Positions 2,531 through 63,701 of a DNA stretch of 64,000 bases are shown here, in pieces; the first letter of the stretch is position 1, and every line of letters begins with the position of its first letter. The DNA is from Escherichia phage EJP2. The translations under genes and the position numbers were made by a program. Below the pieces are notes generated by a model that made no database searches, was not told where the DNA came from, and saw only the letters and a program-made list of their open reading frames with translations. Where the stretch lies: sequence record OQ411014.1; one strand, 5' to 3'.

Positions 2531-2968
2531 ATGCAATCGTACTTCTCCATAATTACCGATGTACTCGCAGAATATACCAAACCAGAACAGTGGACACCAA
2601 TCAAATCAGACGTAGGAGAACGCTACCGTTCAGTACTGGATGGTAGTGTCCTGTCCGTATCTAAAGCATTGATTGGTTTCATTTACAATGGAGACAAAGC
2701 ACCAGTCCAGGAATTGACTGTGAACATTTTTGCTAACTCGAAGTATTTTGTATTTGTAGACCGAAATACCAACAAGGTAAGAATAAAGACCAGTGTAGGC
2801 AGTACTGGTATTATGACGAGTAAGGTACTTTCTACTTTAGTTCCAGAAGATGAGTATTTTCATTTGATGTTATCATCTGATGAGTATCAGATATCCTATG
2901 AAGAGCAGAAAATATTGCTCAAGTTCATAGAACTCGCAAAGTGGGTACACAGGAAAAATAATCGTTGA
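2531..2968 (+). CDS. hypothetical protein (145 aa)
   Basis: ORF track; TAAGGA RBS. Confidence 0.55.
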   Translation: MQSYFSIITDVLAEYTKPEQWTPIKSDVGERYRSVLDGSVLSVSKALIGFIYNGDKAPVQELTVNIFANSKYFVFVDRNTNKVRIKTSVGSTGIMTSKVLSTLVPEDEYFHLMLSSDEYQISYEEQKILLKFIELAKWVHRKNNR

Positions 2969-2993
2969 CAGTACTGCTAGGTGTGCGTATAAT
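2965..2993 (+). promoter_or_regulatory. sigma70-type promoter TTGACA N17 TATAAT
   Basis: Canonical hexamers; CAGTACTG abuts the -35 box. Confidence 0.55.
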
Positions 2994-4760: not shown

Positions 4761-5618
4761 ATGCAACCAATAACAGTACTTAGTCTGTTCAATGGAATGT
4801 CAGGCGGGATGCTTGCTTTAAACGAAGCACAAATACCCGTACATAAGTACTATTCATCTGAGATAGATAAGTTCGCAAACGCTGAGTCCCAAGCGAATTT
4901 CCCTGATATAGTCCAGTTGGGTGATGTTACCAAGTGGAAGGAATGGGATATTGAATGGGACAAAATAGATCTACTCATGGGTGGATTTCCATGCCAGGCA
5001 TGGTCTGTGGCTGGTAAACAGGGTGGAACGAACGATCCACGTGGAATGCTATTCCATACTATGGTTGATATCTATCATCATATTAAGGCGTTGAATCCGA
5101 ACTTGAAAGTACTGTTCGAGAACGTCAAGATGAAAGAAGACTTCAAGCAATACATTGATGGTATCTTAGGAATGACACCTAAGATGATCAACTCTCAAAA
5201 CTACACTGCTCACTATCGCCAGCGATATTACTGGTACTCATCTGATAAGTACTTTATCCCGCCTCCTATCATGTCTTCCCCTTCACTGCAATCAATTCTT
5301 GATAGTGATTACACTGATAGAGAGAAATCGTACTGTATAGATGCGAACTATTGGAAGGGTGGAGATCCTAACCAGTACTTCAACAAGTCCAGGCGGCAGA
5401 TGGTGTTCATGGACCCTGATATTGATAGAGAGTACCTTATTGAAAAGGGTATAAACAAGATTGACTATCGTAAGCTAAGTGTAGTAGAATGTTGTCGTTG
5501 TCAGGGAGTGCCGGATGATTACTTTAAAGTGTCCAGCAATACCCAAGCGTACAAGATGTTAGGTAACGGGTGGACTATCCCAGTCATCGCTCACTTATTA
5601 CGTGATATATTCTTTTGA
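4761..5618 (+). CDS. DNA (cytosine-5)-methyltransferase
   Basis: C5-MTase motifs in order: I LFNGMSGG, IV GFPCQAWS, VI ENV, C-terminal GNGWTIPV; RBS AAAGGA. Confidence 0.8.
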   Translation: MQPITVLSLFNGMSGGMLALNEAQIPVHKYYSSEIDKFANAESQANFPDIVQLGDVTKWKEWDIEWDKIDLLMGGFPCQAWSVAGKQGGTNDPRGMLFHTMVDIYHHIKALNPNLKVLFENVKMKEDFKQYIDGILGMTPKMINSQNYTAHYRQRYYWYSSDKYFIPPPIMSSPSLQSILDSDYTDREKSYCIDANYWKGGDPNQYFNKSRRQMVFMDPDIDREYLIEKGINKIDYRKLSVVECCRCQGVPDDYFKVSSNTQAYKMLGNGWTIPVIAHLLRDIFF

Positions 5619-8126: not shown

Positions 8127-8405
8127 ATGCATTTCGAAAAATTCAACGCAAACCGTAACACACGTATTGAAATGTTGTTTGAAACTCAAGATACTATCAG
8201 TATTTGTACTAAGAGTGGTGATGTTTACCATGAATGTACTATTGAGTGGGAACAAGGCCGAACACGTTCTGTTGAGTTTGACAACTACCATTTCAAACAA
8301 GGCGACCGCAAGATCTGGCCTGAACTGGTAGAAAGCATTGCATATGAAGATGAAGATAAAGAATCTTTTATCAAAGAAAATCCAGAAAATGATGAAGATT
8401 TTTGA
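8127..8405 (+). CDS. hypothetical protein (92 aa)
   Basis: ORF track; TAGGA RBS. Confidence 0.5.
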   Translation: MHFEKFNANRNTRIEMLFETQDTISICTKSGDVYHECTIEWEQGRTRSVEFDNYHFKQGDRKIWPELVESIAYEDEDKESFIKENPENDEDF

Positions 8406-8431
8406 GCATTTTGAAGAAAATGTGATATAAT
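8402..8431 (+). promoter_or_regulatory. extended -10 promoter (TTGAGC N18 TGTGATATAAT) upstream of tRNA pair
   Basis: Second copy of TGTGATATAATATAA block. Confidence 0.5.
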
Positions 8432-8485: not shown

Positions 8486-8576
<91 letters not shown>

Positions 8577-8689
8577 GTTTTCAAAAGGTAGCCGAAAGGC
8601 AAGTTTATAGGATTTACGGATAGTTATAAATCTGAATTGACAGCAACTCCTAACAGAGTTACTATCCGCTCCTATCTTTTCTTAATCCA

Positions 8690-8764
8690 CGGGGTATAGC
8701 TTAATGGATAAAGCAGTAACCTTCTAAGTTATTGATCTAAGTTCGATTCTTAGTATCCCGACCA
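8690..8764 (+). tRNA. tRNA-Arg (anticodon UCU)
   Basis: Acceptor CGGGGTA/TATCCCG, anticodon stem GTAAC/GTTAT loop CTTCTAA, T-loop GTTCGATTC, encoded CCA. Confidence 0.75.
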
Positions 8765-10167: not shown

Positions 10168-10572
10168 ATGATTGATCTTCAGAAACTGCTAATGGTTCAG
10201 TATGGTTTTGATGTGTTGTCGAGTAGTGATTTATCGAACGTGAATTTGAAAGATTTTGAATTCATTATCAGAGATGCAAACAATAACAGTACTGATGCTT
10301 ATGCGTCAATTCATAACGAAAGCGTTGATTTCACATTCAATGATTGTTCTGTGTATGTTGATGCTACAGAAATCGAAATCGTTTACCGTGTATATAGTGA
10401 AAACTACGCGGACGATATCGAATATATCCTTTGTATTGAAAATCCAACTTATATAGTGAATGAAGAAACTTTCTTCCAGGCTAGTACACTTCAAGATTTA
10501 TCAGAAGTTCCTGGGTATGAGTGGATTGTTTCTATTATGCAAATGTACAAAAATATTATTACTAAGGTATAA
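10168..10572 (+). CDS. FFQ-motif family protein (tandem paralog)
   Basis: ORF track; C-terminal VNEETFFQASTLQDLSEV; TAGGA RBS. Confidence 0.55.
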   Translation: MIDLQKLLMVQYGFDVLSSSDLSNVNLKDFEFIIRDANNNSTDAYASIHNESVDFTFNDCSVYVDATEIEIVYRVYSENYADDIEYILCIENPTYIVNEETFFQASTLQDLSEVPGYEWIVSIMQMYKNIITKV

Positions 10573-10573
10573 T

Positions 10574-11092
10574 ATGAAAGAGCTTATTGAACGTGTAGAT
10601 TTCTTTGAACTGATTGCATTGGAATTTGATCCAGAATGTACTGATATTCTTTCAGATGTACCAATCTTCCCTATTGAAAACGATGATGGTACTTCATCGT
10701 ACTTAGAAGATTACGAAGATTATTTGCGTAGCTTCTGTCCAACATCAAACGATAAAGTGCATCTCTTTACTGAAATTATTCATGTACAATACAATACAAA
10801 TAATAAAGAAATTGTATTATGTGCAATGGATACATTCAACAGTACTGAAGCTGGTATTGCACGTGAGTATGCTAAACTATATCTCATTGATACAGGTGAG
10901 TATTGTAAACTTACCATCAAGGAAAATTCATTTATATTCAATAACAAAGAATATAAGCTAGGTACTACTGAAGAAGAGAACTTCCAGATTTCATGTACTG
11001 ACATGGGTTACTTCAATAATGTAGTAAATGAAGTAAAGAAATTTATTCTTCAAGATATTGACAAGAATGGATTACCTGAGTATAATAAATAA
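10574..11092 (+). CDS. FFQ-motif family protein
   Basis: ORF track 10460..11092 trimmed to ATG after TAAGGT RBS (track start overlaps upstream gene by >100 nt); motif TTEEENFQISC. Confidence 0.5.
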   Translation: MKELIERVDFFELIALEFDPECTDILSDVPIFPIENDDGTSSYLEDYEDYLRSFCPTSNDKVHLFTEIIHVQYNTNNKEIVLCAMDTFNSTEAGIAREYAKLYLIDTGEYCKLTIKENSFIFNNKEYKLGTTEEENFQISCTDMGYFNNVVNEVKKFILQDIDKNGLPEYNK

Positions 11093-11101
11093 CAGAATTA
11101 C

Positions 11102-11191
11102 AGAAGGTTGGCAGAGCGGCTAAATGCACTCGCCTACTAAGCGAGCACTCGCTCCGGCGAGTCGAGGGTTCGAATCCCCCACCTTCTGCCA
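11102..11191 (+). tRNA. type II tRNA with unusual anticodon loop (apparent anticodon ACU; identity uncertain)
   Basis: Acceptor AGAAGGT/ACCTTCT, T-loop GGTTCGAATCC, long variable arm, encoded CCA; anticodon stem CTCGC/GCGAG with loop CTACTAA. Confidence 0.6.
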
Positions 11192-11204
11192 TATTAGGAT
11201 TTCA

Positions 11205-11594
11205 ATGATGACAATGCATGTGTACGATGAGTATGAAGAACGTATAAAACATGAAATCCAAAGTTATTTGGATGGTGTCAATAAAAAATTGAAATACAGT
11301 TCGGGTAAACGTTTTCAATCATTCACCCTAGAATACATGGATTGTGATGATTATAAACAACGCAGAATAACTATAAAAATTGCAGTTGATCCGAAGTTTA
11401 GTTGTGTGCATTCATCTTTACAGATAGATTCCACTTTTGGTGAAGATGAAGATCAATACTGGAGTGGTTTTTCCTATATACCAGAAAGTGAAGAAAAGCA
11501 CTTTCAAGAAACGTTACTCAATAAACAGATTTTAAGCTGGGATTTATTGCAGTACTTGATTGTTTTCTTCACTAAAATGCAAAATAAAGATTGA
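11205..11594 (+). CDS. FFQ-motif family protein
   Basis: ORF track 11124..11594 trimmed because track start lies inside the tRNA; ATG after AGGAT RBS; motif SEEKHFQETL. Confidence 0.5.
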   Translation: MMTMHVYDEYEERIKHEIQSYLDGVNKKLKYSSGKRFQSFTLEYMDCDDYKQRRITIKIAVDPKFSCVHSSLQIDSTFGEDEDQYWSGFSYIPESEEKHFQETLLNKQILSWDLLQYLIVFFTKMQNKD

Positions 11595-11641
11595 CTGTAC
11601 TGTAATGAACTAGTATTATATTACTTAGAGGATATAAAAAC

Positions 11642-12028: not shown

Positions 12029-12238
12029 ATGAAAGCACGAGAACTTGCTAAAATTCTGATGGATAATCCCGAAGCTGAAGTTGTTTTGAATGATAATGAA
12101 TCAAATTATCAATTTTCACATATTGCCTGTACTGAAACTTTTTATAAAGATTCGTATGCTGAATCTTGGCAAAACGATGATAACAAAACTATTTCAGAAA
12201 ATGAAAAATTCAAAGTTGATGTAATAGTTTTGTACTGA
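12029..12238 (+). CDS. small protein, MKxxELxxIL N-terminal family
   Basis: ORF track; N-terminus MKARELAKILMDNPEAEVV shared with 13494, 14536 and 16293 genes. Confidence 0.5.
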   Translation: MKARELAKILMDNPEAEVVLNDNESNYQFSHIACTETFYKDSYAESWQNDDNKTISENEKFKVDVIVLY

Positions 12239-12445
12239 TATAATGAATTCCACAATCAGACGTATATGGTGTAAGTTACGTCGATGTAATCCAGAACAAG
12301 ATCTCTGGTACTCTAGGAAGTGGTGAATGTTAACCTAGACGGGTTTGATAATTGGACGATAGGCAATTATTACTTGACTAGCAGGTTTAAACTAGAGGTG
12401 ACAGTCCTTCACCAAACTGGAAAACCGGATGGACTTTTTAATTTA

Positions 12446-12540
<95 letters not shown>

Positions 12541-12607: not shown

Positions 12608-12686
<79 letters not shown>

Positions 12687-14960: not shown

Positions 14961-15087
<127 letters not shown>

Positions 15088-16877: not shown

Positions 16878-17357
16878 ATGGAATTAAGTTTAAAGCACCA
16901 GAATGCTCTGAAACGAGTAATGGACCATATCAAAACGAACAAGTCACTTTCTATGAGTACGTATGATTCCTTCCACAAAACAACACAAGTGTGGGCGAGT
17001 GATTCATTCGATAACTCGAAAGATAAAAGTAATTCTTGTATAGAAGATACTGATGGTGTAATATATGTAAATCTAAAGTACTCAAATTTTGAAGAAATGT
17101 ATATGTATATCGACATCAGAGATATGGTGGTTAACATTTCATATGCATATGATGAAGACATTGCTGCATTGAAACATGAATCGGAGATAACAAATGATTA
17201 TTGGTATGCTGATTTCACTGTTCCGATATTTGAAAAAGAAGAAGAATATTTCCAGTACTTAACTACTGAAGAGAATCCTTTGTCTATAGAAGAAAACAAA
17301 ATGTTTATTGATTTTGTTGTTGAATTTTATAAAAGAAAAGAAAAACATATTCGTTGA
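16878..17357 (+). CDS. FFQ-motif family protein
   Basis: ORF track 16866..17357, second in-frame ATG preferred (GGAGAG RBS); motif KEEEYFQYL. Confidence 0.55.
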   Translation: MELSLKHQNALKRVMDHIKTNKSLSMSTYDSFHKTTQVWASDSFDNSKDKSNSCIEDTDGVIYVNLKYSNFEEMYMYIDIRDMVVNISYAYDEDIAALKHESEITNDYWYADFTVPIFEKEEEYFQYLTTEENPLSIEENKMFIDFVVEFYKRKEKHIR

Positions 17358-17382
17358 CACATGACCTGTACTTGAGTATAAT
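17354..17382 (+). promoter_or_regulatory. sigma70-type promoter TTGACA N17 TATAAT with hairpin spanning the -10
   Basis: Inverted repeat ACCTGTACT/AGTACAGGT encloses the -10 and is followed by a T-run. Confidence 0.5.
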
Positions 17383-18700: not shown

Positions 18701-18728
18701 TTGACAACGCATTCAGTACTGATATAAT
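18701..18728 (+). promoter_or_regulatory. sigma70-type promoter TTGACA N16 TATAAT with TCAGTACTGA in spacer
   Basis: Spacer and -10 context TTCAGTACTGATATAAT is identical to the promoter at 38714. Confidence 0.55.
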
Positions 18729-19456: not shown

Positions 19457-19937
19457 AATTCATCACAAGATGAAACCCTTCTGGAAAGAAGTTGATGGGC
19501 TGGTGGAGTACTTAGTGTACTACCATGCATTTGGTTCCGTCTATGAACGACAAGGCTTGAAGGACCGTTCCATCTGTATCAATAAATCCAAATCGTACTT
19601 CATTTCATTTCAGTACGATAACTTATTGTACATGATTCTTTACAGCCTGAAGAACCCGAATGTGTTTTCTATTGAGATTGCAGATACATGGGACAAAACA
19701 TCATATTCTACACTATATGATTTCACTGTACCAGTACTGCTAACTGAAGAAGAACTGTTCAGTAAAGCATTGACGCAAGACATTGCGGAGTATAGTATTG
19801 AATTGCATAAGGAAGTATATAATTACTTCATGTACGTTCACACTATGCTTGGGGTTGGTCAGTTGAAAGATATGGACCCAATCACACCGCACATCCAGTC
19901 AGTACTGGATTCTGTAAAAGATTTGAAGAAGTGTTGA
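19434..19937 (+). CDS. FFQ-like family protein (start uncertain)
   Basis: ORF track 19428..19937 (TTG); first ATG used; motif LTEEELFSKAL. Confidence 0.5.
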   Translation: MGKCTMRKIHHKMKPFWKEVDGLVEYLVYYHAFGSVYERQGLKDRSICINKSKSYFISFQYDNLLYMILYSLKNPNVFSIEIADTWDKTSYSTLYDFTVPVLLTEEELFSKALTQDIAEYSIELHKEVYNYFMYVHTMLGVGQLKDMDPITPHIQSVLDSVKDLKKC

Positions 19938-19962
19938 CATAGGGGGAATCTTCCCCTATAAT
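19934..19962 (+). promoter_or_regulatory. sigma70-type promoter TTGACA N17 TATAAT with hairpin in spacer
   Basis: GGGGGAATCTTCCCC inverted repeat sits in the spacer. Confidence 0.5.
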
Positions 19963-24794: not shown

Positions 24795-25157
24795 ATGACA
24801 AAGCACCGTACATTACATAATGCAATAAAACATGTTCATACTAATATCAGTACTATCATGTCTAACCAGCCATATATATGCGGTGCTTTGGAATTCACAT
24901 CTCTAGGACACCAAACTGTCCACGCATACGAACTCTTCTGGAACACCCACAGAGCCATTACTATTGATATGTATGAGAATCACATGGCCTTCAAATCATG
25001 GAACGTTGATACGTACCGATGGATGGATGTGTGCAAGATAAGTTATGACATCACCAGGGAAGAGTTCGATCAGTTGTTGTTCGTTCATGACTTACGTACT
25101 TTGGAGTTCAAATCATTCAAGTACCTAAAGCTCATCAAAGAACACATTTTCAGTTGA
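24795..25157 (+). CDS. hypothetical protein (120 aa)
   Basis: ORF track. Confidence 0.5.
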   Translation: MTKHRTLHNAIKHVHTNISTIMSNQPYICGALEFTSLGHQTVHAYELFWNTHRAITIDMYENHMAFKSWNVDTYRWMDVCKISYDITREEFDQLLFVHDLRTLEFKSFKYLKLIKEHIFS

Positions 25158-25210
25158 CAATGATTTGTTATGATGTATAATACTAACAAATAACACAGAG
25201 GATTGAAAAC

Positions 25211-29049: not shown

Positions 29050-29078
29050 TTGACAGTACTGAATGACTGCTCTATAAT
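29050..29078 (+). promoter_or_regulatory. sigma70-type promoter TTGACA N17 TATAAT
   Basis: Canonical hexamers; CAGTACTG abuts -35. Confidence 0.55.
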
Positions 29079-31705: not shown

Positions 31706-32199
31706 ATACGTATATCAGTGGGTTTTACAAGTACTACCTATCGTTCATAACTATATTTGCTATTCTGTTATTGAATGAAACAGAACAATTTGGATCAAAA
31801 TTCCTATCAGAAGGACTAGGAATCTTCCTTCAGGTTATCTTTGCACTGATGGCTGCTATATCAATGCCAGTACTGATCTATGGTATTCATCTTGTTGCGA
31901 GCGATGACCAGGATAGTAAGGACTCGTGTATCCGTGAGTACTGCCAAGCAGCAAAATACAGTACTATAAGTTCTATGATACCGTTTAGTCTAATTATTGT
32001 GTCCATCGCTATGTTCCAATGGAATCTGTGGTTCTTGGGTACGTTTGGATTTATTATGGGTTGTAGTATGTACGTGTATACTAAAGTACTATACAGAGGT
32101 GAGAAACTATTCACTGAAATGGAAGCCCGTAAAGGAACCAAAGCACCAGTTCAACGAGAAGAGCGAGATTATTTCGCACCAGACGATGAGTTACCTTGA
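31702..32199 (+). CDS. multi-pass membrane protein (165 aa)
   Basis: ORF track. Confidence 0.5.
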   Translation: MNTYISGFYKYYLSFITIFAILLLNETEQFGSKFLSEGLGIFLQVIFALMAAISMPVLIYGIHLVASDDQDSKDSCIREYCQAAKYSTISSMIPFSLIIVSIAMFQWNLWFLGTFGFIMGCSMYVYTKVLYRGEKLFTEMEARKGTKAPVQREERDYFAPDDELP

Positions 32200-32224
32200 C
32201 ACGTACCTGAAGAGTAGCTATAAT
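32196..32224 (+). promoter_or_regulatory. sigma70-type promoter TTGACA N17 TATAAT
   Basis: Canonical hexamers upstream of 32260 gene. Confidence 0.55.
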
Positions 32225-33490: not shown

Positions 33491-33519
33491 TTGACAGTCT
33501 AAAAGAGATATCATATAAT
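33491..33519 (+). promoter_or_regulatory. sigma70-type promoter TTGACA N17 TATAAT
   Basis: Canonical hexamers upstream of small ORF and sigma gene. Confidence 0.55.
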
Positions 33520-33758: not shown

Positions 33759-34751
33759 ATGACTGTAAAACAACTCAATCTAGAATCTATTCAAGACGAT
33801 ATCATGGATGAATGTTTTGTAAATGAAAACAATACGTTCGAGCGTATTAGTGAACAGTCACATGACAGTACTGAAGAAGTAGAAGAAAGTACTGATGACG
33901 TAGGTTCTTTCAAGACTTACAACACATCTAGCGTTTTACCAGAAGGTGAGACGAATGAATCTATTATTCGTTTAATCCGTGACGGTATCAATGTGAAGCG
34001 TAACATTGACCTTATCGTACGTAACAACGTAGGCTTAGTATATAGCCAAGCACGTCAGTGTACTTGTAATATCCCATTCCAAGATAAAGCACAGTACGCT
34101 TTTGAAGGTCTAATGCGTGCAATCCATCGTTATGATGTGAATCAGAATATTCTTTTCAGTACTTACGCTACTGTGTCTATTCGCCAAACACTCTATAACT
34201 TTGGTAATGATGAAGTTCGTCTAATCAGTATTCCACGTCACTTGTCAGTGGATAACATCAAGATTCAGAACTACATTGAGAAGCATCGTTCTAAGTTCGG
34301 TCGTACCCCAAGTGAAGATGAAATCAGTACTGCTACTGGCATCAAGTTATCCGCAGTGAAACGTGTAGTGCAGTACATGAACAGTAAGCCAATGAGTTTC
34401 GATACTCCAATGGGTTCTGACAGTACTGAAAACGATATGAGCTTAGTGGATGTAATCCCAGGAACTTCCAATGATTACACACTAAGTGCAGATACAGTTC
34501 AGAAAGCACCACTAGATGTAATTGCATTGGTCATGTCTGAACTACCAGAAGAAGAGCAGTTGCTGATCAATAAGATTCACGGCTTGAATGGACATGAAGA
34601 AAGTACTTTTATTGCTCTAGAGACTGCTGGATTGGTAGATGCGAAGGGTAAGAAGCTAACTAACCGTTGCACTATTCATCGTCGTTACAATGCAATACTG
34701 GATAAGATTCGTAATATTCTAAAAGCACGTGACATTTCATTCGATGACTGA
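33759..34751 (+). CDS. RNA polymerase sigma factor, sigma70 family
   Basis: Region 2 match VGLVYSQARQ..FEGLMRAIHRYD..FSTYATVSIRQT and C-terminal region-4-like helix-turn-helix; AAGGAG RBS. Confidence 0.7.
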   Translation: MTVKQLNLESIQDDIMDECFVNENNTFERISEQSHDSTEEVEESTDDVGSFKTYNTSSVLPEGETNESIIRLIRDGINVKRNIDLIVRNNVGLVYSQARQCTCNIPFQDKAQYAFEGLMRAIHRYDVNQNILFSTYATVSIRQTLYNFGNDEVRLISIPRHLSVDNIKIQNYIEKHRSKFGRTPSEDEISTATGIKLSAVKRVVQYMNSKPMSFDTPMGSDSTENDMSLVDVIPGTSNDYTLSADTVQKAPLDVIALVMSELPEEEQLLINKIHGLNGHEESTFIALETAGLVDAKGKKLTNRCTIHRRYNAILDKIRNILKARDISFDD

Positions 34752-38713: not shown

Positions 38714-38740
38714 AAAAAAGAGTTGACACAGATTTCAGTA
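38714..38740 (+). promoter_or_regulatory. sigma70-type promoter TTGACA N15 TATAAT with TCAGTACTGA in spacer
   Basis: Spacer and -10 identical to promoter at 18701. Confidence 0.5.
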
Positions 38741-38801
38741 CTGATATAATTACTACATCAAGAACGAACTAACTAAAACACTCAAACATAGGATTAAAAA
38801 T

Positions 38802-44120: not shown

Positions 44121-45641
44121 ATGCCAAATGATATGAAACACAAGAATGGTGCATTAGTACAACACTCTGACAAATGGAGTGAAGCTAATCGTCGTAAGAA
44201 TTCACACAACGCAGGCCAAGGATCTCGTGGCTCTCGCAATCAGGGGACTGGTGAAGCTGGTAAAGCTAATACAGTTGCTTCTGGTGGTATGGACACTTCC
44301 AATATGTCTCAACATGAGAAACTAAAGTACTTCAACAGTTTAGGACTCCTAAACCCTACACAGAAGAAGCAATTACAAGACATGGACGCTGCTGCATCTG
44401 CACCAAAAGAACAGCCACAGCAAGCTCCTAAAGCTGCTCCTGCTGGTAATCCTGTCAAAGAGCTATCTGATAACTTAGGTCGTATCTTTGCACAGAAGCC
44501 TAATCTAATTCAAGGTATTGTAAAAGAACTACAAGCAGTACCGAAGGAAGAGCTAAAGAGTAAAGCACAAGCTGTACTTGATGCTATGAAAGGCAATCGC
44601 AGTACTGAACCAACCGAAGTATTCAGTACTATCATGCGTGCACTTCAAGCTAAACCACAAGCTGCTCCAGCACAGAAAGCACCTAAGATGGACAGTGCAC
44701 AGGACATGTCAGATTTGTTTGGTAAAGTTGGTGCTGAAGGTAAGAACAACGCACAACAAGTCAAGAACGTCCAAGCTAAGATTATTGATCGTTTAGGTGA
44801 TAATCAAGACAAGACTAAGCGGGCATTTGACGCATTGAACAAAGCACTTGAATCTTATGTTCCTGGTGAGAAAGACAAGTTCCAGACCATCATGAACGCA
44901 GTCTTTGGTGAAATGAAGAAGTACGAAGCAGAGCACGGTGAGAAGGTATCATCTGATGGCTATATGATTCGTAAAGACGAAGAAGGTGCAGTAGACCAGA
45001 AAGATGCTCCTAAAGAGCAAGAAGACCTACCTGATACAGTTGATATGGATGGTTACATTTCTCGTCCAGATGAATATGACTTCGGTTCAGACAAAGAAGG
45101 TTATGAGTATGCTATGGACATTTATCGTTTCCTAGCTAAGAACTATGATTATGCTAACAAGTACGTAGATCAGTTTGTCAGTGCTTGGGATAATTACAAA
45201 GATAAAGGTTATGACTTCCCTGCGGAAGCTGCATTCTTTGAGTTAGGTAAACTACTCCAGAAAGATGGTGTAGAGATTGGCTCGAAAGAAGATACTTCTA
45301 GTCTAGATGCAGAATTGGCAAAAGACCGTCAAATGACACCAGGTTCTAAAGCTGAATTGAATAAGCTCCTATCATGGATTGTTGACATTGGTAAAAATGC
45401 TGGTAAAGATAACAAGAGTATCAACCGCAGTATTTCTTGGATCAATAATAAAATTGATAACAACGGGCGTAAGCTACAGAAAGCATGGAGTGATTTAGTC
45501 AATGGTGCAGATGAGATCGATATTGATTCTCCTGAAGCATATGAGTATGCGATGACGACTCTAGACAATTCCTTCCAGGACTATGAAAATGGTAATCTAA
45601 CTGCTAGTGAACAAGACATCATGCGTTCACACGGAAAATAA
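44121..45641 (+). CDS. large A/K/Q/P-rich protein (506 aa)
   Basis: ORF track; GGAGAG RBS; low-complexity N-terminal half; host-like codon usage. Confidence 0.65.
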   Translation: MPNDMKHKNGALVQHSDKWSEANRRKNSHNAGQGSRGSRNQGTGEAGKANTVASGGMDTSNMSQHEKLKYFNSLGLLNPTQKKQLQDMDAAASAPKEQPQQAPKAAPAGNPVKELSDNLGRIFAQKPNLIQGIVKELQAVPKEELKSKAQAVLDAMKGNRSTEPTEVFSTIMRALQAKPQAAPAQKAPKMDSAQDMSDLFGKVGAEGKNNAQQVKNVQAKIIDRLGDNQDKTKRAFDALNKALESYVPGEKDKFQTIMNAVFGEMKKYEAEHGEKVSSDGYMIRKDEEGAVDQKDAPKEQEDLPDTVDMDGYISRPDEYDFGSDKEGYEYAMDIYRFLAKNYDYANKYVDQFVSAWDNYKDKGYDFPAEAAFFELGKLLQKDGVEIGSKEDTSSLDAELAKDRQMTPGSKAELNKLLSWIVDIGKNAGKDNKSINRSISWINNKIDNNGRKLQKAWSDLVNGADEIDIDSPEAYEYAMTTLDNSFQDYENGNLTASEQDIMRSHGK

Positions 45642-48860: not shown

Positions 48861-50039
48861 TTATGGTAAATCAAATTCCGTATATGAATATTTGTATACA
48901 CCATCTGGTCCACGACCTGAGTATCGTAATTTACCAGAAGTAGTTATATATGCTGAAGTAATATTACTAGTACTGAATATGTTAAACACTGACTTCATAT
49001 CATTCACTGTACCGTTACCGAATGGTATCAGGTTAAGTTCATTGCCGTTGACACCAGTACTCAATCTTCCTGAAGAATTTGCTCCACAACCATATGCATT
49101 TGATGGGCTAAGAGCAACGTAACCAGTATTACTAGTATAATAACTTAGTAAACCAATAAAATTCTCTGTAGTGGCTATTTCAGTAAAGACTCTAATATTG
49201 ACAGAACTATTCACTCCATTACCTAAGTTTCCAGCATTCTGGCTTCCCGCAGCATATAGATGTGTTTTACCAGTACCGTCACTGTACAATATTGTGAATG
49301 CTGATTCAGTTAGACCAATATCAAAAACACTAAGACCTGGGTCTGGTAGTGGTACTTGTGTTAGCACATTTATTCTTGTATCTGGATGACCAATACCGAG
49401 TTGACCAAATGAGTTTGAACCTGAAACCCAAACACTTAAATCATTTTTTAATATCAGTACTGATGAATTAACAAATTCAACTTTTTGAACATCTGATGTA
49501 AGTTTTGAGAAAGTAGTTAGTGCAAGATAATTACCAGTTGCTAGTTGGCCTTGGTTATTAAAACCGCTTCTATAAAGATCACCATTGTTCATTAATATAT
49601 ATAATGCATATACACCAGCATGAACAGATGTTATTTGATTAAGATTCCCTGTACCTATACCAGCTTCAATAAATGGGGTACAATCAGTATATGATGTCAC
49701 AACTTCAGTAGATGATGTATTGCCAGTTTGAAAGCTACGGCGACCAGTATATAATAATTTTCCATCCATAGTTTTAATGATAACAAAACTTGTGTTTGTA
49801 CACCAAACATCTTGAACATCATCTCTGATTAAAGTCCACTCTAGCTTTTGTTCTGTTGGCTTTCCATCCCCATAGATATAATTATCAACTGTTCCTCCAC
49901 CGATACCATACAATCTGTTATCATCATATAATACCATAAATGCCGGACGAGACGATGCATAAGGTACTAATATTTTTGTAATTTCAGGTAATGAAGGTGC
50001 TTTATTACCATAATTAAGCATTCGTACAAAAGGTAACAT
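48861..50039 (-). CDS. RCC1-like repeat (beta-propeller) protein (392 aa)
   Basis: ORF track; GGAGA RBS on minus strand; repeated G-x-N-x-x-G-Q/N-L-G motifs (GFNNQGQLATG, GSNSFGQLGIG, GSQNAGNLGNG). Confidence 0.65.
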   Translation of the reverse strand: MLPFVRMLNYGNKAPSLPEITKILVPYASSRPAFMVLYDDNRLYGIGGGTVDNYIYGDGKPTEQKLEWTLIRDDVQDVWCTNTSFVIIKTMDGKLLYTGRRSFQTGNTSSTEVVTSYTDCTPFIEAGIGTGNLNQITSVHAGVYALYILMNNGDLYRSGFNNQGQLATGNYLALTTFSKLTSDVQKVEFVNSSVLILKNDLSVWVSGSNSFGQLGIGHPDTRINVLTQVPLPDPGLSVFDIGLTESAFTILYSDGTGKTHLYAAGSQNAGNLGNGVNSSVNIRVFTEIATTENFIGLLSYYTSNTGYVALSPSNAYGCGANSSGRLSTGVNGNELNLIPFGNGTVNDMKSVFNIFSTSNITSAYITTSGKLRYSGRGPDGVYKYSYTEFDLP

Positions 50040-50916: not shown

Positions 50917-50944
50917 TTGACACACAATGGGAGTACTGTATAAT
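50917..50944 (+). promoter_or_regulatory. sigma70-type promoter TTGACA N16 TATAAT with hairpin across -10
   Basis: GGGAGTACTGTATAATACTCCC inverted repeat encloses -10. Confidence 0.5.
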
Positions 50945-62570: not shown

Positions 62571-63701
62571 TTAAAATGGTAAATCTATTTGTTTGGTAAT
62601 CGTCATACCTAAAGGTATTGAACACATTGACATATTTTTCCCATTTAGATTGGAAGGCGGCTGTCCGTTCATCCATATATTGGTATCGTCATAGAATGTA
62701 CTCCACCACGTAGAACCACCTTCTATGTGAATATTTTGATTAAAATCAGCGAATTGGCATTCTTGAAAAACTTCAAAAAACGGAATAGATGATAAACTAC
62801 TACTAGTAAATGGTGTATATCCTGTTGCCATTAACTTATTCGTATCTGAATTTACTAAAAAGATAACATTACCTGCATTGTATGGTACATATTTGGGATA
62901 TAAATTACTCATATCACCAATAGGGAAGTTAATATTAAATATTTTACTATGCGTACCCGTTCCTGAAAGTGTAGTACCAGTTACGTATATTTTATTATCA
63001 GTTGTACCCATAATAAACCCAATACCAAACCCAGAACAAAATGTAATGTCGTATGAAACATTATCAAATAGTTGAACAAACGTAGTTACATCACCTGCTG
63101 GACTTTGTATTTGTAAACTATTGTTTGCACCTGCTCCCCAAACAGTTCCGTTACTTTTCACTTTGAATAAAGTATCTCCTATATAGTGACCATATATGCT
63201 ATCAACTTCAGTATCAAGTTCTGTCCATTGTGACACAAAGTTTTTATGCCCTAAACCTAAACACCCATTACGATTAAGCCCTCTACCGTACAATGTACCA
63301 TCATTCATCAATACAAATACTGTATATCCACATAACATTTTTTTAATTTGTGTAACGTCGATACCATTAAAATACCCACTCCAATCTGCATAACCTTGTT
63401 GCATTGTCGAAGAATTTGTAAATGCTTGTGTTGGCCCTGAACCATATATTTTACCACCTTTAATAATGACTGAAAACGATCCCAACCACACATCTTGAAC
63501 ATCCTGAGCAATTGTTTTCAATTCACCATATGCAGTTAAGGGAGTACTTTGCCCTGAACTATATGTTGAATCTTCTCCGTGTGCATATAATGTTCCATCT
63601 TGTGTTAGAATCATTTCTAAGTAAACAGCACTTACACTTTTCTTTATTTTATTAACTTCTATTTTATTTCCGTACTTCAACATCCTTGCAAAAGGTAACA
63701 T
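62571..63701 (-). CDS. RCC1-like repeat (beta-propeller) protein (376 aa), paralog of 48861..50039
   Basis: ORF track; shared N-terminus MLPFARMLKYGNK vs MLPFVRMLNYGNK; motif GLNRNGCLGLG; GGAGA RBS on minus strand. Confidence 0.65.
   Translation of the reverse strand: MLPFARMLKYGNKIEVNKIKKSVSAVYLEMILTQDGTLYAHGEDSTYSSGQSTPLTAYGELKTIAQDVQDVWLGSFSVIIKGGKIYGSGPTQAFTNSSTMQQGYADWSGYFNGIDVTQIKKMLCGYTVFVLMNDGTLYGRGLNRNGCLGLGHKNFVSQWTELDTEVDSIYGHYIGDTLFKVKSNGTVWGAGANNSLQIQSPAGDVTTFVQLFDNVSYDITFCSGFGIGFIMGTTDNKIYVTGTTLSGTGTHSKIFNINFPIGDMSNLYPKYVPYNAGNVIFLVNSDTNKLMATGYTPFTSSSLSSIPFFEVFQECQFADFNQNIHIEGGSTWWSTFYDDTNIWMNGQPPSNLNGKNMSMCSIPLGMTITKQIDLPF

Follow-up and report, generated by a model that had tools for sequence, protein, structure and literature searches.

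A phage tRNA-Ser(ACU) gene of Escherichia phage EJP2, conserved in Rak2/121Q-like jumbo phages, as a candidate AGU specialist with an unmodified wobble adenosine

The 64,000-nucleotide stretch of Escherichia phage EJP2 analysed here (record OQ411014.1, hereafter the window) carries a genuine long-variable-arm tRNA-Ser with an ACU anticodon (Table 1). We think it probable that this tRNA, Ser(ACU), is functional, expressed early and specialised in the codon AGU, with its adenosine at position 34 (A34) left unmodified. The type is already annotated in GenBank relatives of the phage, and the gene of the window is another such member. As a finding in a single window it is modest; its interest is that of a natural exception to the near-absence of A34 in two-codon boxes.

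Table 1. Coordinates of the features of the window discussed in the text.
Feature	Position	Strand	Evidence or detail
tRNA-Thr(UGU)	682		ARAGORN, Rfam
PTH2 (peptidyl-tRNA hydrolase) ORF, 132 aa	1355-1750	+	Pfam, E = 6.7e-14
Perfect promoter 1	2965-2993	+	
C5 cytosine DNA methylase	4761-5615	+	Pfam
Promoter-like site	8402-8431	+	9-10/12 matches
tRNA-Ser(UGA), upstream cluster member	8487-8576	+	ARAGORN, Rfam
Promoter-like site	8637-8665	+	9-10/12 matches
tRNA-Arg(UCU), upstream cluster member, AGA reader	8690-8764	+	ARAGORN, Rfam
Perfect promoter 2, TTGACA-17 nt-TATAAT	11058-11086	+	sigma-70 consensus, 12/12 matches
tRNA-Ser(ACU), 90 nt	11102-11191	+	ARAGORN; Rfam RF00005; covariation across 83 homologues
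Acceptor stem, 5' strand AGAAGGT	11102-11108	+	covariance alignment; pairs with ACCTTCT 11181-11187
Anticodon arm	11129-11145	+	CTCGC 11129-11133 / GCGAG 11141-11145, loop CTACTAA 11134-11140
Anticodon ACT (A34 C35 U36), complement of codon AGU	11136-11138	+	ARAGORN, covariance alignment
Variable-arm hairpin ACTCGC-TCCG-GCGAGT	11147-11162	+	stem repeats the anticodon-stem sequence
T arm GAGGG-TTCGAAT-CCCCC	11164-11180	+	Rfam alignment; one A50·C64 mismatch
Discriminator G73 and encoded CCA	11188-11191	+	
Promoter-like site	12216-12244	+	9-10/12 matches
tRNA-Ser(GCU), paralogue, conventional AGY reader	12451-12540	+	ARAGORN, Rfam
Promoter-like site	12644-12671	+	9-10/12 matches
tRNA-Met(CAU)	12696		ARAGORN, Rfam
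Perfect promoter 3	15030-15057	+	
Perfect promoter 4	17354-17382	+	
Perfect promoter 5	18701-18728	+	
Perfect promoter 6	19934-19962	+	
Perfect promoter 7	25154-25181	+	
Perfect promoter 8	29050-29078	+	
Perfect promoter 9	32196-32224	+	
Perfect promoter 10	33491-33519	+	
Sigma-70-family factor	33759-34748	+	Pfam
Perfect promoter 11	38723-38750	+	
RCC1-like repeat protein	48864-50039	-	Pfam
Perfect promoter 12	50917-50944	+	
RCC1-like repeat protein	62574-63701	-	Pfam

ARAGORN calls tRNA-Ser(act) at this locus, and the Rfam covariance model RF00005 scores 47.9 bits over positions 11102-11188 (gathering threshold: 29 bits), with the full model (1-71) covered. The two programs agree on a loop CUACUAA closed by a CUCGC/GCGAG stem, just as the original prediction, made from the sequence letters, had read a type II tRNA with an apparent ACU anticodon; a covariance fold with a conventional anticodon, which would have spoken against that reading, did not emerge, ACU being placed in a loop of 7 nt. 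The variable region, 18 nt long with its own 6-bp hairpin, is that of a class II tRNA. The acceptor stem is entirely Watson-Crick (7/7 pairs, including G2-C71 and A3-U70) and, like the encoded CCA, is canonical as predicted, but the T arm, described in the same terms, is not: its A50·C64 mismatch is the sole unpaired cell at that pair across 83 aligned sequences, and the Rfam score of the gene is the lowest among the six tRNAs of the window. The identity elements of the E. coli seryl-tRNA synthetase (SerRS) comprise G73, G2-C71, A3-U70 and C11-G24, all of which are present along with the long variable arm; since these serine identity features are in place, no recoding is expected. The worry that the fold might be a misprediction is countered by the two programs and by the covariation presented below. 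A minus-strand match to the Rfam family Plastid-psbl-rps4 (27.7 bits vs. a threshold of 68), which overlaps the T and variable arms in antisense, was taken for an artefact.

The repetition of the anticodon stem in the variable arm, also pointed out beforehand, is genuine, with copies of CACTCGC at 11127 and 11146 and of GCGAG at 11141 and 11157. An alternative fold through the repeated sequence was rejected, as the minimum free energy structure computed by RNAfold retains the anticodon and variable-arm hairpins as separate elements. Among the matches listed, the duplication is found in one of 82 unique Ser(ACU) tRNAs, that of the window alone, which rules it out as a family trait, and the homologues of 121Q and SE_PL (see below) do not have it. 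Exact-pattern metagenome scans with the arm junction and with the anticodon arm of the window yielded no match for either. Most simply, the variable-arm copy of the anticodon stem is a local accident of sequence turnover.

The window has a GC content of 36.9% and about 128 ORFs, of which 120 lie on the plus strand. The perfect sigma-70 promoter associated with Ser(ACU) sits within the 3' end of the upstream ORF, its -10 hexamer ending 15 nt before the tRNA. Perfect TTGACA-16-18 nt-TATAAT sites number 12 in the window, all on the plus strand, vs. 0.07 expected, and the whole looks like an early region transcribed by the host RNA polymerase. Ser(ACU) starts 9 nt past the stop codon of ORF 10460-11092, and the next ORF, with a likely start at ATG 11205 preceded by AGGA, begins 13 nt after it. 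No terminator was found downstream of Ser(ACU); judging from this layout, the tRNA probably heads a transcript running on into the downstream ORFs. As to the neighbours themselves, PHROGs returned 'unknown function' only, and no relatives of ORF 10460-11092 were found in IMG/VR. Among the 128 ORFs of the window, Pfam matches were limited to PTH2, the methylase, the sigma factor and the two RCC1-like repeat proteins, the latter encoded on the minority strand. The PTH2 ORF lies 0.6 kb downstream of tRNA-Thr, which places another gene related to translation in the vicinity of the tRNA cluster.

Altogether, ARAGORN identifies six tRNAs in the window, all of which pass the Rfam tRNA model. The paralogue Ser(GCU) is located 1.26 kb downstream of Ser(ACU), while Arg(UCU), upstream, reads AGA and is therefore a competitor for that codon. 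Promoter-like sites precede Ser(UGA), Arg(UCU) and Met by 24-55 nt and Ser(GCU) by 206 nt, and most tRNAs of the cluster may thus have their own promoter.

A megablast of the region 10700-11600 against phage genomes gave no near-identical match. The relationships of the phage are apparent from a 506-aa ORF (44121-45641) whose product, labelled structural in the annotation of several relatives, shares 61-68% identity with its counterparts in the Asteriusvirus jumbo coliphages 121Q, PBECO4 and A4, with weaker matches in Klebsiella, Salmonella, Erwinia, Yersinia and Cronobacter phages. The phage is thus related to the Rak2/121Q group, and its host is probably an enterobacterium. By BLAST, positions 2-46 of Ser(ACU) are recovered at 91% identity in 18 Asteriusvirus records (121Q and 17 others). 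In 121Q, the gene is annotated as tRNA-Ser(act) (PBI_121Q_131, NC_025447 75464-75555), and it shares with the window an identical anticodon arm (CACTCGC-CTACTAA-GCGAGCA), the same D arm and, gene order apart, the same tRNA-cluster neighbourhood, but it differs by an unrelated variable arm (AAGTGTTAGAAATAACGCTT), two G·U pairs in the acceptor stem, a fully paired T stem and a CCA that is not encoded. Moreover, Ser(ACU) of 121Q lies 7 nt before tRNA-Met, a position occupied by Ser(GCU) in the window. The Salmonella Rak2-like phages SE_PL and Munch also have ACU within CTACTAA and a similar acceptor stem (GGAAGGT/ACCTTCC) and D arm, but their anticodon stem is ACGGT/ACCGT, i.e., four of the five pairs are changed on both sides, and the discriminator of SE_PL (L348:3500-3590) is A73 instead of G73. 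A sigma-70-type promoter or promoter-like site precedes each of the three Ser(ACU) genes examined, by eye in the last two: the perfect site of the window, TTGACT-17-TATAAT ending 10 nt before the gene in 121Q, and a -10-like element, TGtgaTATAAT, ending 10 nt upstream in SE_PL.

The history of these genes appears to be entangled with that of their GCU paralogues. The variable and T arms (query 45-81) of SE_PL and Munch (L351:1456-1546) are 97% identical to the Ser(GCU) of the group, which suggests, from the sequences compared, that their Ser(ACU) genes are chimeras of ACU and GCU paralogues and hence that the paralogues exchange segments. The Ser(GCU) of the window is itself 100% identical in many Asteriusvirus phages, PBECO4, BF17 and A4 among them, and in Salmonella phages of the SD series, the identity being 97.7% for Klebsiella phages RaK2 and K64-1; set against the 61-68% identity of the structural protein, this points to either extreme conservation or recent exchange. 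Within Asteriusvirus, 121Q has ACU only (it has no GCU gene at 62-92 kb and is absent from the Ser(GCU) sequence matches), PBECO4 and BF17 have GCU only, and ph0011, Turkey3, JP4 and WPEC3 have both, as in the window. The cluster members Ser-UGA, Arg-UCU, Met and Thr are shared, but gene order differs between phages: ACU, three ORFs, GCU and Met in the window, GCU, HNH, ACU and Met in ph0011, and ACU then Met in 121Q. The gene found between Ser(gct) and Ser(act) in ph0011 (L350:2811-3335) is annotated as a NUMOD4 HNH homing endonuclease. Its placement recalls that of SegB in the tRNA cluster of T4, and it may be the driver behind the presence or absence of these tRNAs in one phage or another.

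The taxonomic reach of Ser(ACU) was examined by scanning IMG/VR with a pattern combining a type II D arm and the loop CTACTAA, which retrieved at least 120 loci. ARAGORN calls tRNA-Ser(act) in at least 118 contigs (118 of the 120 matches listed). Among the matches listed, these loci provide 81 unique Ser(ACU) sequences, 81-94 nt long and with more than 40 different anticodon stems, and tRNA arrays are common (73% of the listed loci hold at least three tRNAs). When 83 sequences were aligned, 97.7% of the cells formed standard pairs, vs. 65% after shuffling and 35-48% with slid partners, and compensatory changes were seen in 23 of the 26 pairs, the evidence coming only from helices other than the parts of the D arm and the loop fixed by the scan pattern. 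By this comparison of sequences, the ACU anticodon is more than a chance occurrence, A34 being kept in diverged homologues with co-varying stems. A recent G34-to-A point mutant was discarded as an explanation: A34 persists from one lineage to another, and no sampled GCU neighbour exceeds 87% identity.

When the pattern was relaxed to allow any base at position 34, the viral matches listed comprised 17 A vs. 103 G (120 matches, i.e., about 14% A) and those of species-representative bacteria and archaea, from at least 120 loci, 0 A vs. 121 G, a difference that is significant among the matches listed (Fisher p = 4e-6), these counts being samples of one D-arm type and not a census. The rarity of A at the wobble position, as first claimed, is borne out. 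About 8 of 82 Ser(ACU) sequences are short and devoid of CCA, like eukaryotic tRNAs, and four of the eight are on contigs labelled as giant-virus MAGs. Two such contigs (L002:8448-8530 and L003:3037-3119) have an 83-nt Ser(ACU) without encoded CCA that shares the exact 17-nt anticodon arm of the window and 121Q, either by convergence or by transfer. Other tRNAs with A34 were called by ARAGORN in the viral loci (L006-L225): Leu-AAG (8), Phe-AAA (4), Thr-AGU (4), Ser-AGA (4), Asp-AUC (3), Val-AAC (3), Asn-AUU (2), Ala-AGC (2) and Tyr-AUA (1). Some of these may come from eukaryotic viruses. Among the matches listed for the cellular loci (247 tRNAs), A34 is confined to Arg-ACG (50) and one Ile-AAU.

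Codon usage provides a context for this tRNA. Over the 128 ORFs of the window, AGT (367 codons) is the commonest serine codon, vs. 73 AGC, whereas the AGT fraction of AGY codons is 0.27 in the cellular loci sampled. In E. coli, AGC outnumbers AGU about two to one. A stronger AT bias in phages with ACU was considered and rejected, viral ACU and GCU loci having equal GC contents (0.387 vs. 0.383, p = 0.92) and AGT fractions (0.71 vs. 0.70, p = 0.37). Therefore, codon supply explains why AT-rich phages carry an NCU serine tRNA but not why A34 is preferred to G34.

As for decoding, a precedent is available from E. coli, where an orthogonal M. jannaschii tRNA with ACU in the loop CUACUAA keeps A34 unmodified, without inosine, and decodes AGU at 9.4% and AGG at 0.36%, with AGC and AGA below detection (PMC11066159). 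The gammaproteobacterial deaminase TadA needs a YUACGAA stem-loop, single changes of which abolish or nearly abolish editing (PMC12255301), and the loop of Ser(ACU), CUACUAA, misses this motif, U36 replacing the G36 of the UACG core. Furthermore, an overexpressed engineered Ser-tRNA(ACU) improved the growth of E. coli, unlike most ANN tRNAs of two-codon boxes (Raval et al. 2026, bioRxiv 10.64898/2026.05.15.725136). The idea of a Ser(AGY) decoder with a modified A34 hence survives in part: the serine identity features support a decoder in the narrower form of Ser(AGU), while the modification is disfavoured by the departure from the TadA motif and by the lack of inosine in the identical loop.

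The mechanism that we propose is as follows. The consensus sigma-70 promoter of Ser(ACU) would probably be used early by the host RNA polymerase, RNase P would trim off a leader of about 8 nt, and the host SerRS, for which the anticodon is no recognition element, would charge the tRNA with serine. The unmodified A34 would then read AGU by forming a Watson-Crick A34:U3 pair, with little or no reading of AGC and AGA, so that Ser(ACU) would be a specialist for the commonest serine codon of the phage. Ser(GCU) would work alongside it, reading AGC well and AGU by G:U wobble. The present analysis establishes the gene, its fold, the conservation of A34, the promoter match and the codon usage. Expression, charging and a fitness benefit for the phage are what we infer, whereas the lack of inosine and the AGU-only reading are carried over, by analogy, from published work on this anticodon loop in E. 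coli. The Ser(ACU) of the window may nonetheless be mildly redundant beside the GCU gene, given also its T-stem flaw.

Several other readings must be weighed against an AGU specialist with unmodified A34. In one of them, either the host TadA or a phage enzyme encoded outside the window would deaminate A34 to inosine, giving an ICU anticodon able to read AGU, AGC and, at some cost, AGA. The anticodon arm indeed resembles that of the TadA substrate tRNA-Arg(ACG) (14/17 identical), overexpressed TadA edits mRNA at sites of which 29% are one base off TACG (PMC12255301), A-to-I editing of the two-codon-box Phe-tRNA(AAA) has been inferred in E. coli (Raval et al. 2026), and the tRNA-Arg(UCU) of the window would compete at AGA. 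However, U36 breaks the required UACG core (PMC12255301), and the identical loop retained an unmodified A34 in E. coli, without reading of AGC or AGA (PMC11066159). No Pfam match to a deaminase family exists among the 128 ORFs of the 64-kb window (the genome being of about 350 kb). The Arg-like stem is lineage-specific, given the diversity of stems in other Ser(ACU) tRNAs (more than 40 among the matches listed), and a 4/5 stem match has a chance of about 0.016. Finally, an ICU anticodon would place serine at AGA, for which the window has 100 codons. We consider inosine formation quite unlikely. Also improbable, in our view, is that A34 is kept mainly to escape an anticodon nuclease, of the host or of a competitor, that recognises tRNA-Ser(GCU) or G34, with decoding of AGU continuing all the while. 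The evasion of tRNA-cleaving defences by phage tRNAs is an established paradigm (PMC10264068, PMC11464382, PMC11555353). In Asteriusvirus, ACU, GCU or both can occupy this part of the tRNA cluster, which would fit a conflict-driven polymorphism, and as ACU and GCU phages are equally AT-biased, there is room for something besides codon supply. Yet no nuclease specific for tRNA-Ser(GCU) emerged from our literature search or is otherwise known to us; the presumably sensitive GCU copy is also retained by the window and by four Asteriusvirus phages, and no sign of such a conflict is seen in the window.

A different possibility is that Ser(ACU) is a decaying redundant copy, drifting since the GCU gene was gained or kept. 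Its Rfam score (47.9 bits) is the lowest of the six tRNAs, the A·C mismatch of its T stem recurs nowhere else in the alignment of 83 sequences, its variable arm is oddly self-copied, a GCU paralogue is at hand 1.26 kb downstream, and PBECO4 and BF17 do without an ACU gene. Against this, the remaining 25 of 26 pairs are intact, as are the loop, the serine identity and the CCA; a 12/12 consensus promoter lies directly upstream; identity to 121Q reaches 91% in the 5' half and 100% in the anticodon arm; and an A·C pair is a mild defect. Decay is thus very unlikely to account for the gene. The last reading is that of a suppressor or recoding tRNA, raised at the outset, in the form of a tRNA through which a stop codon or the arginine codons AGA/AGG would be reassigned to serine. 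It could invoke the reading of AGG at 0.36% by the orthogonal ACU tRNA in E. coli, about 26x weaker than that of AGU (PMC11066159), and the lack of a tRNA-Arg(CCU) in the window. However, ACU is complementary to no stop codon, and all three stops end ORFs (TAA 73, TGA 38, TAG 17) at a coding density of 86% under the standard code. We regard recoding as extremely improbable, and an AGU specialist with unmodified A34 as the reading to retain.

The question of why A34 is avoided reportedly originates in Crick's wobble paper of 1966. In GtRNAdb, 695 of 246,393 bacterial tRNAs have an anticodon starting with A other than Arg-ACG, about one fifth of them in two-codon boxes (Raval et al. 2026), and a review of 2021 states that phages lack the same ANN anticodons as bacteria (PMC8007984). 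The Ser(ACU) data contradict the latter statement, the tRNA being conserved in Rak2/121Q-like phages and endowed with its own strong promoter. In our literature search, no paper discussing a phage Ser(ACU) was found; recent papers on phage tRNAs are silent on ACU and A34, and phages go unmentioned in the preprint that deals with how rare ANN tRNAs are (Raval et al. 2026). The viral loci also held Asp-AUC, Phe-AAA, Asn-AUU and Tyr-AUA, all from split boxes (ARAGORN calls), and it seems to us an even call whether Ser(ACU) is one face of a virus-specific habit, namely selected unmodified A34 tRNAs in split boxes, with anticodons deemed universally absent from cells or even 'prohibited' there; this wider viral pattern may be under-appreciated. 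If so, a genome that merely supplements the tRNA pool of its host could afford Watson-Crick specialists for U-ending codons, and the culturable coliphages of the 121Q group would offer a natural test of Crick's 1966 conjecture on the avoidance of A34. Because E. coli served as the isolation host of 121Q and ph0011, direct measurements of the modification, decoding, missense cost and fitness effect of a natural split-box A34 are within reach.

The closest known systems, besides the genes of 121Q, SE_PL and Munch, include tRNA-Ser(GCU), e.g., the paralogue of the window, which has in common with Ser(ACU) the long arm, G73, the loop CU-NCU-AA, serine identity and the AGY box, but which reads both AGC and AGU with G34 and accounts for 121/121 cellular matches listed, A34 being seen in viral contigs only. 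tRNA-Arg(ACG) resembles Ser(ACU) by its encoded A34, its loop (6/7) and its stem (4/5), the arm of E. coli having 14 of 17 bases in common with that of the window (CTCGG-CTACGAA-CCGAG vs. CTCGC-CTACTAA-GCGAG). Nevertheless, it has G36 and is a TadA substrate and the usual A34 tRNA of bacteria, while Ser(ACU) is a long-arm tRNA of a two-codon box where inosine means missense. Natural tRNAs with an unmodified A34 are not known to read other than four-codon boxes, in which loose reading is harmless. The tRNA-Thr(AGU) of Mycoplasma capricolum, with a natural unmodified A34 (Andachi et al. 1987, as reported in PMC11066159), shares the wobble adenosine, but Ser(ACU) operates in a split box shared with arginine. 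Finally, the engineered ACU tRNAs (PMC11066159; Raval et al. 2026) have the same anticodon and, in the M. jannaschii construct, the same 7-nt loop; they are artificial, whereas the gene of the window is natural, conserved and preceded by its own promoter.
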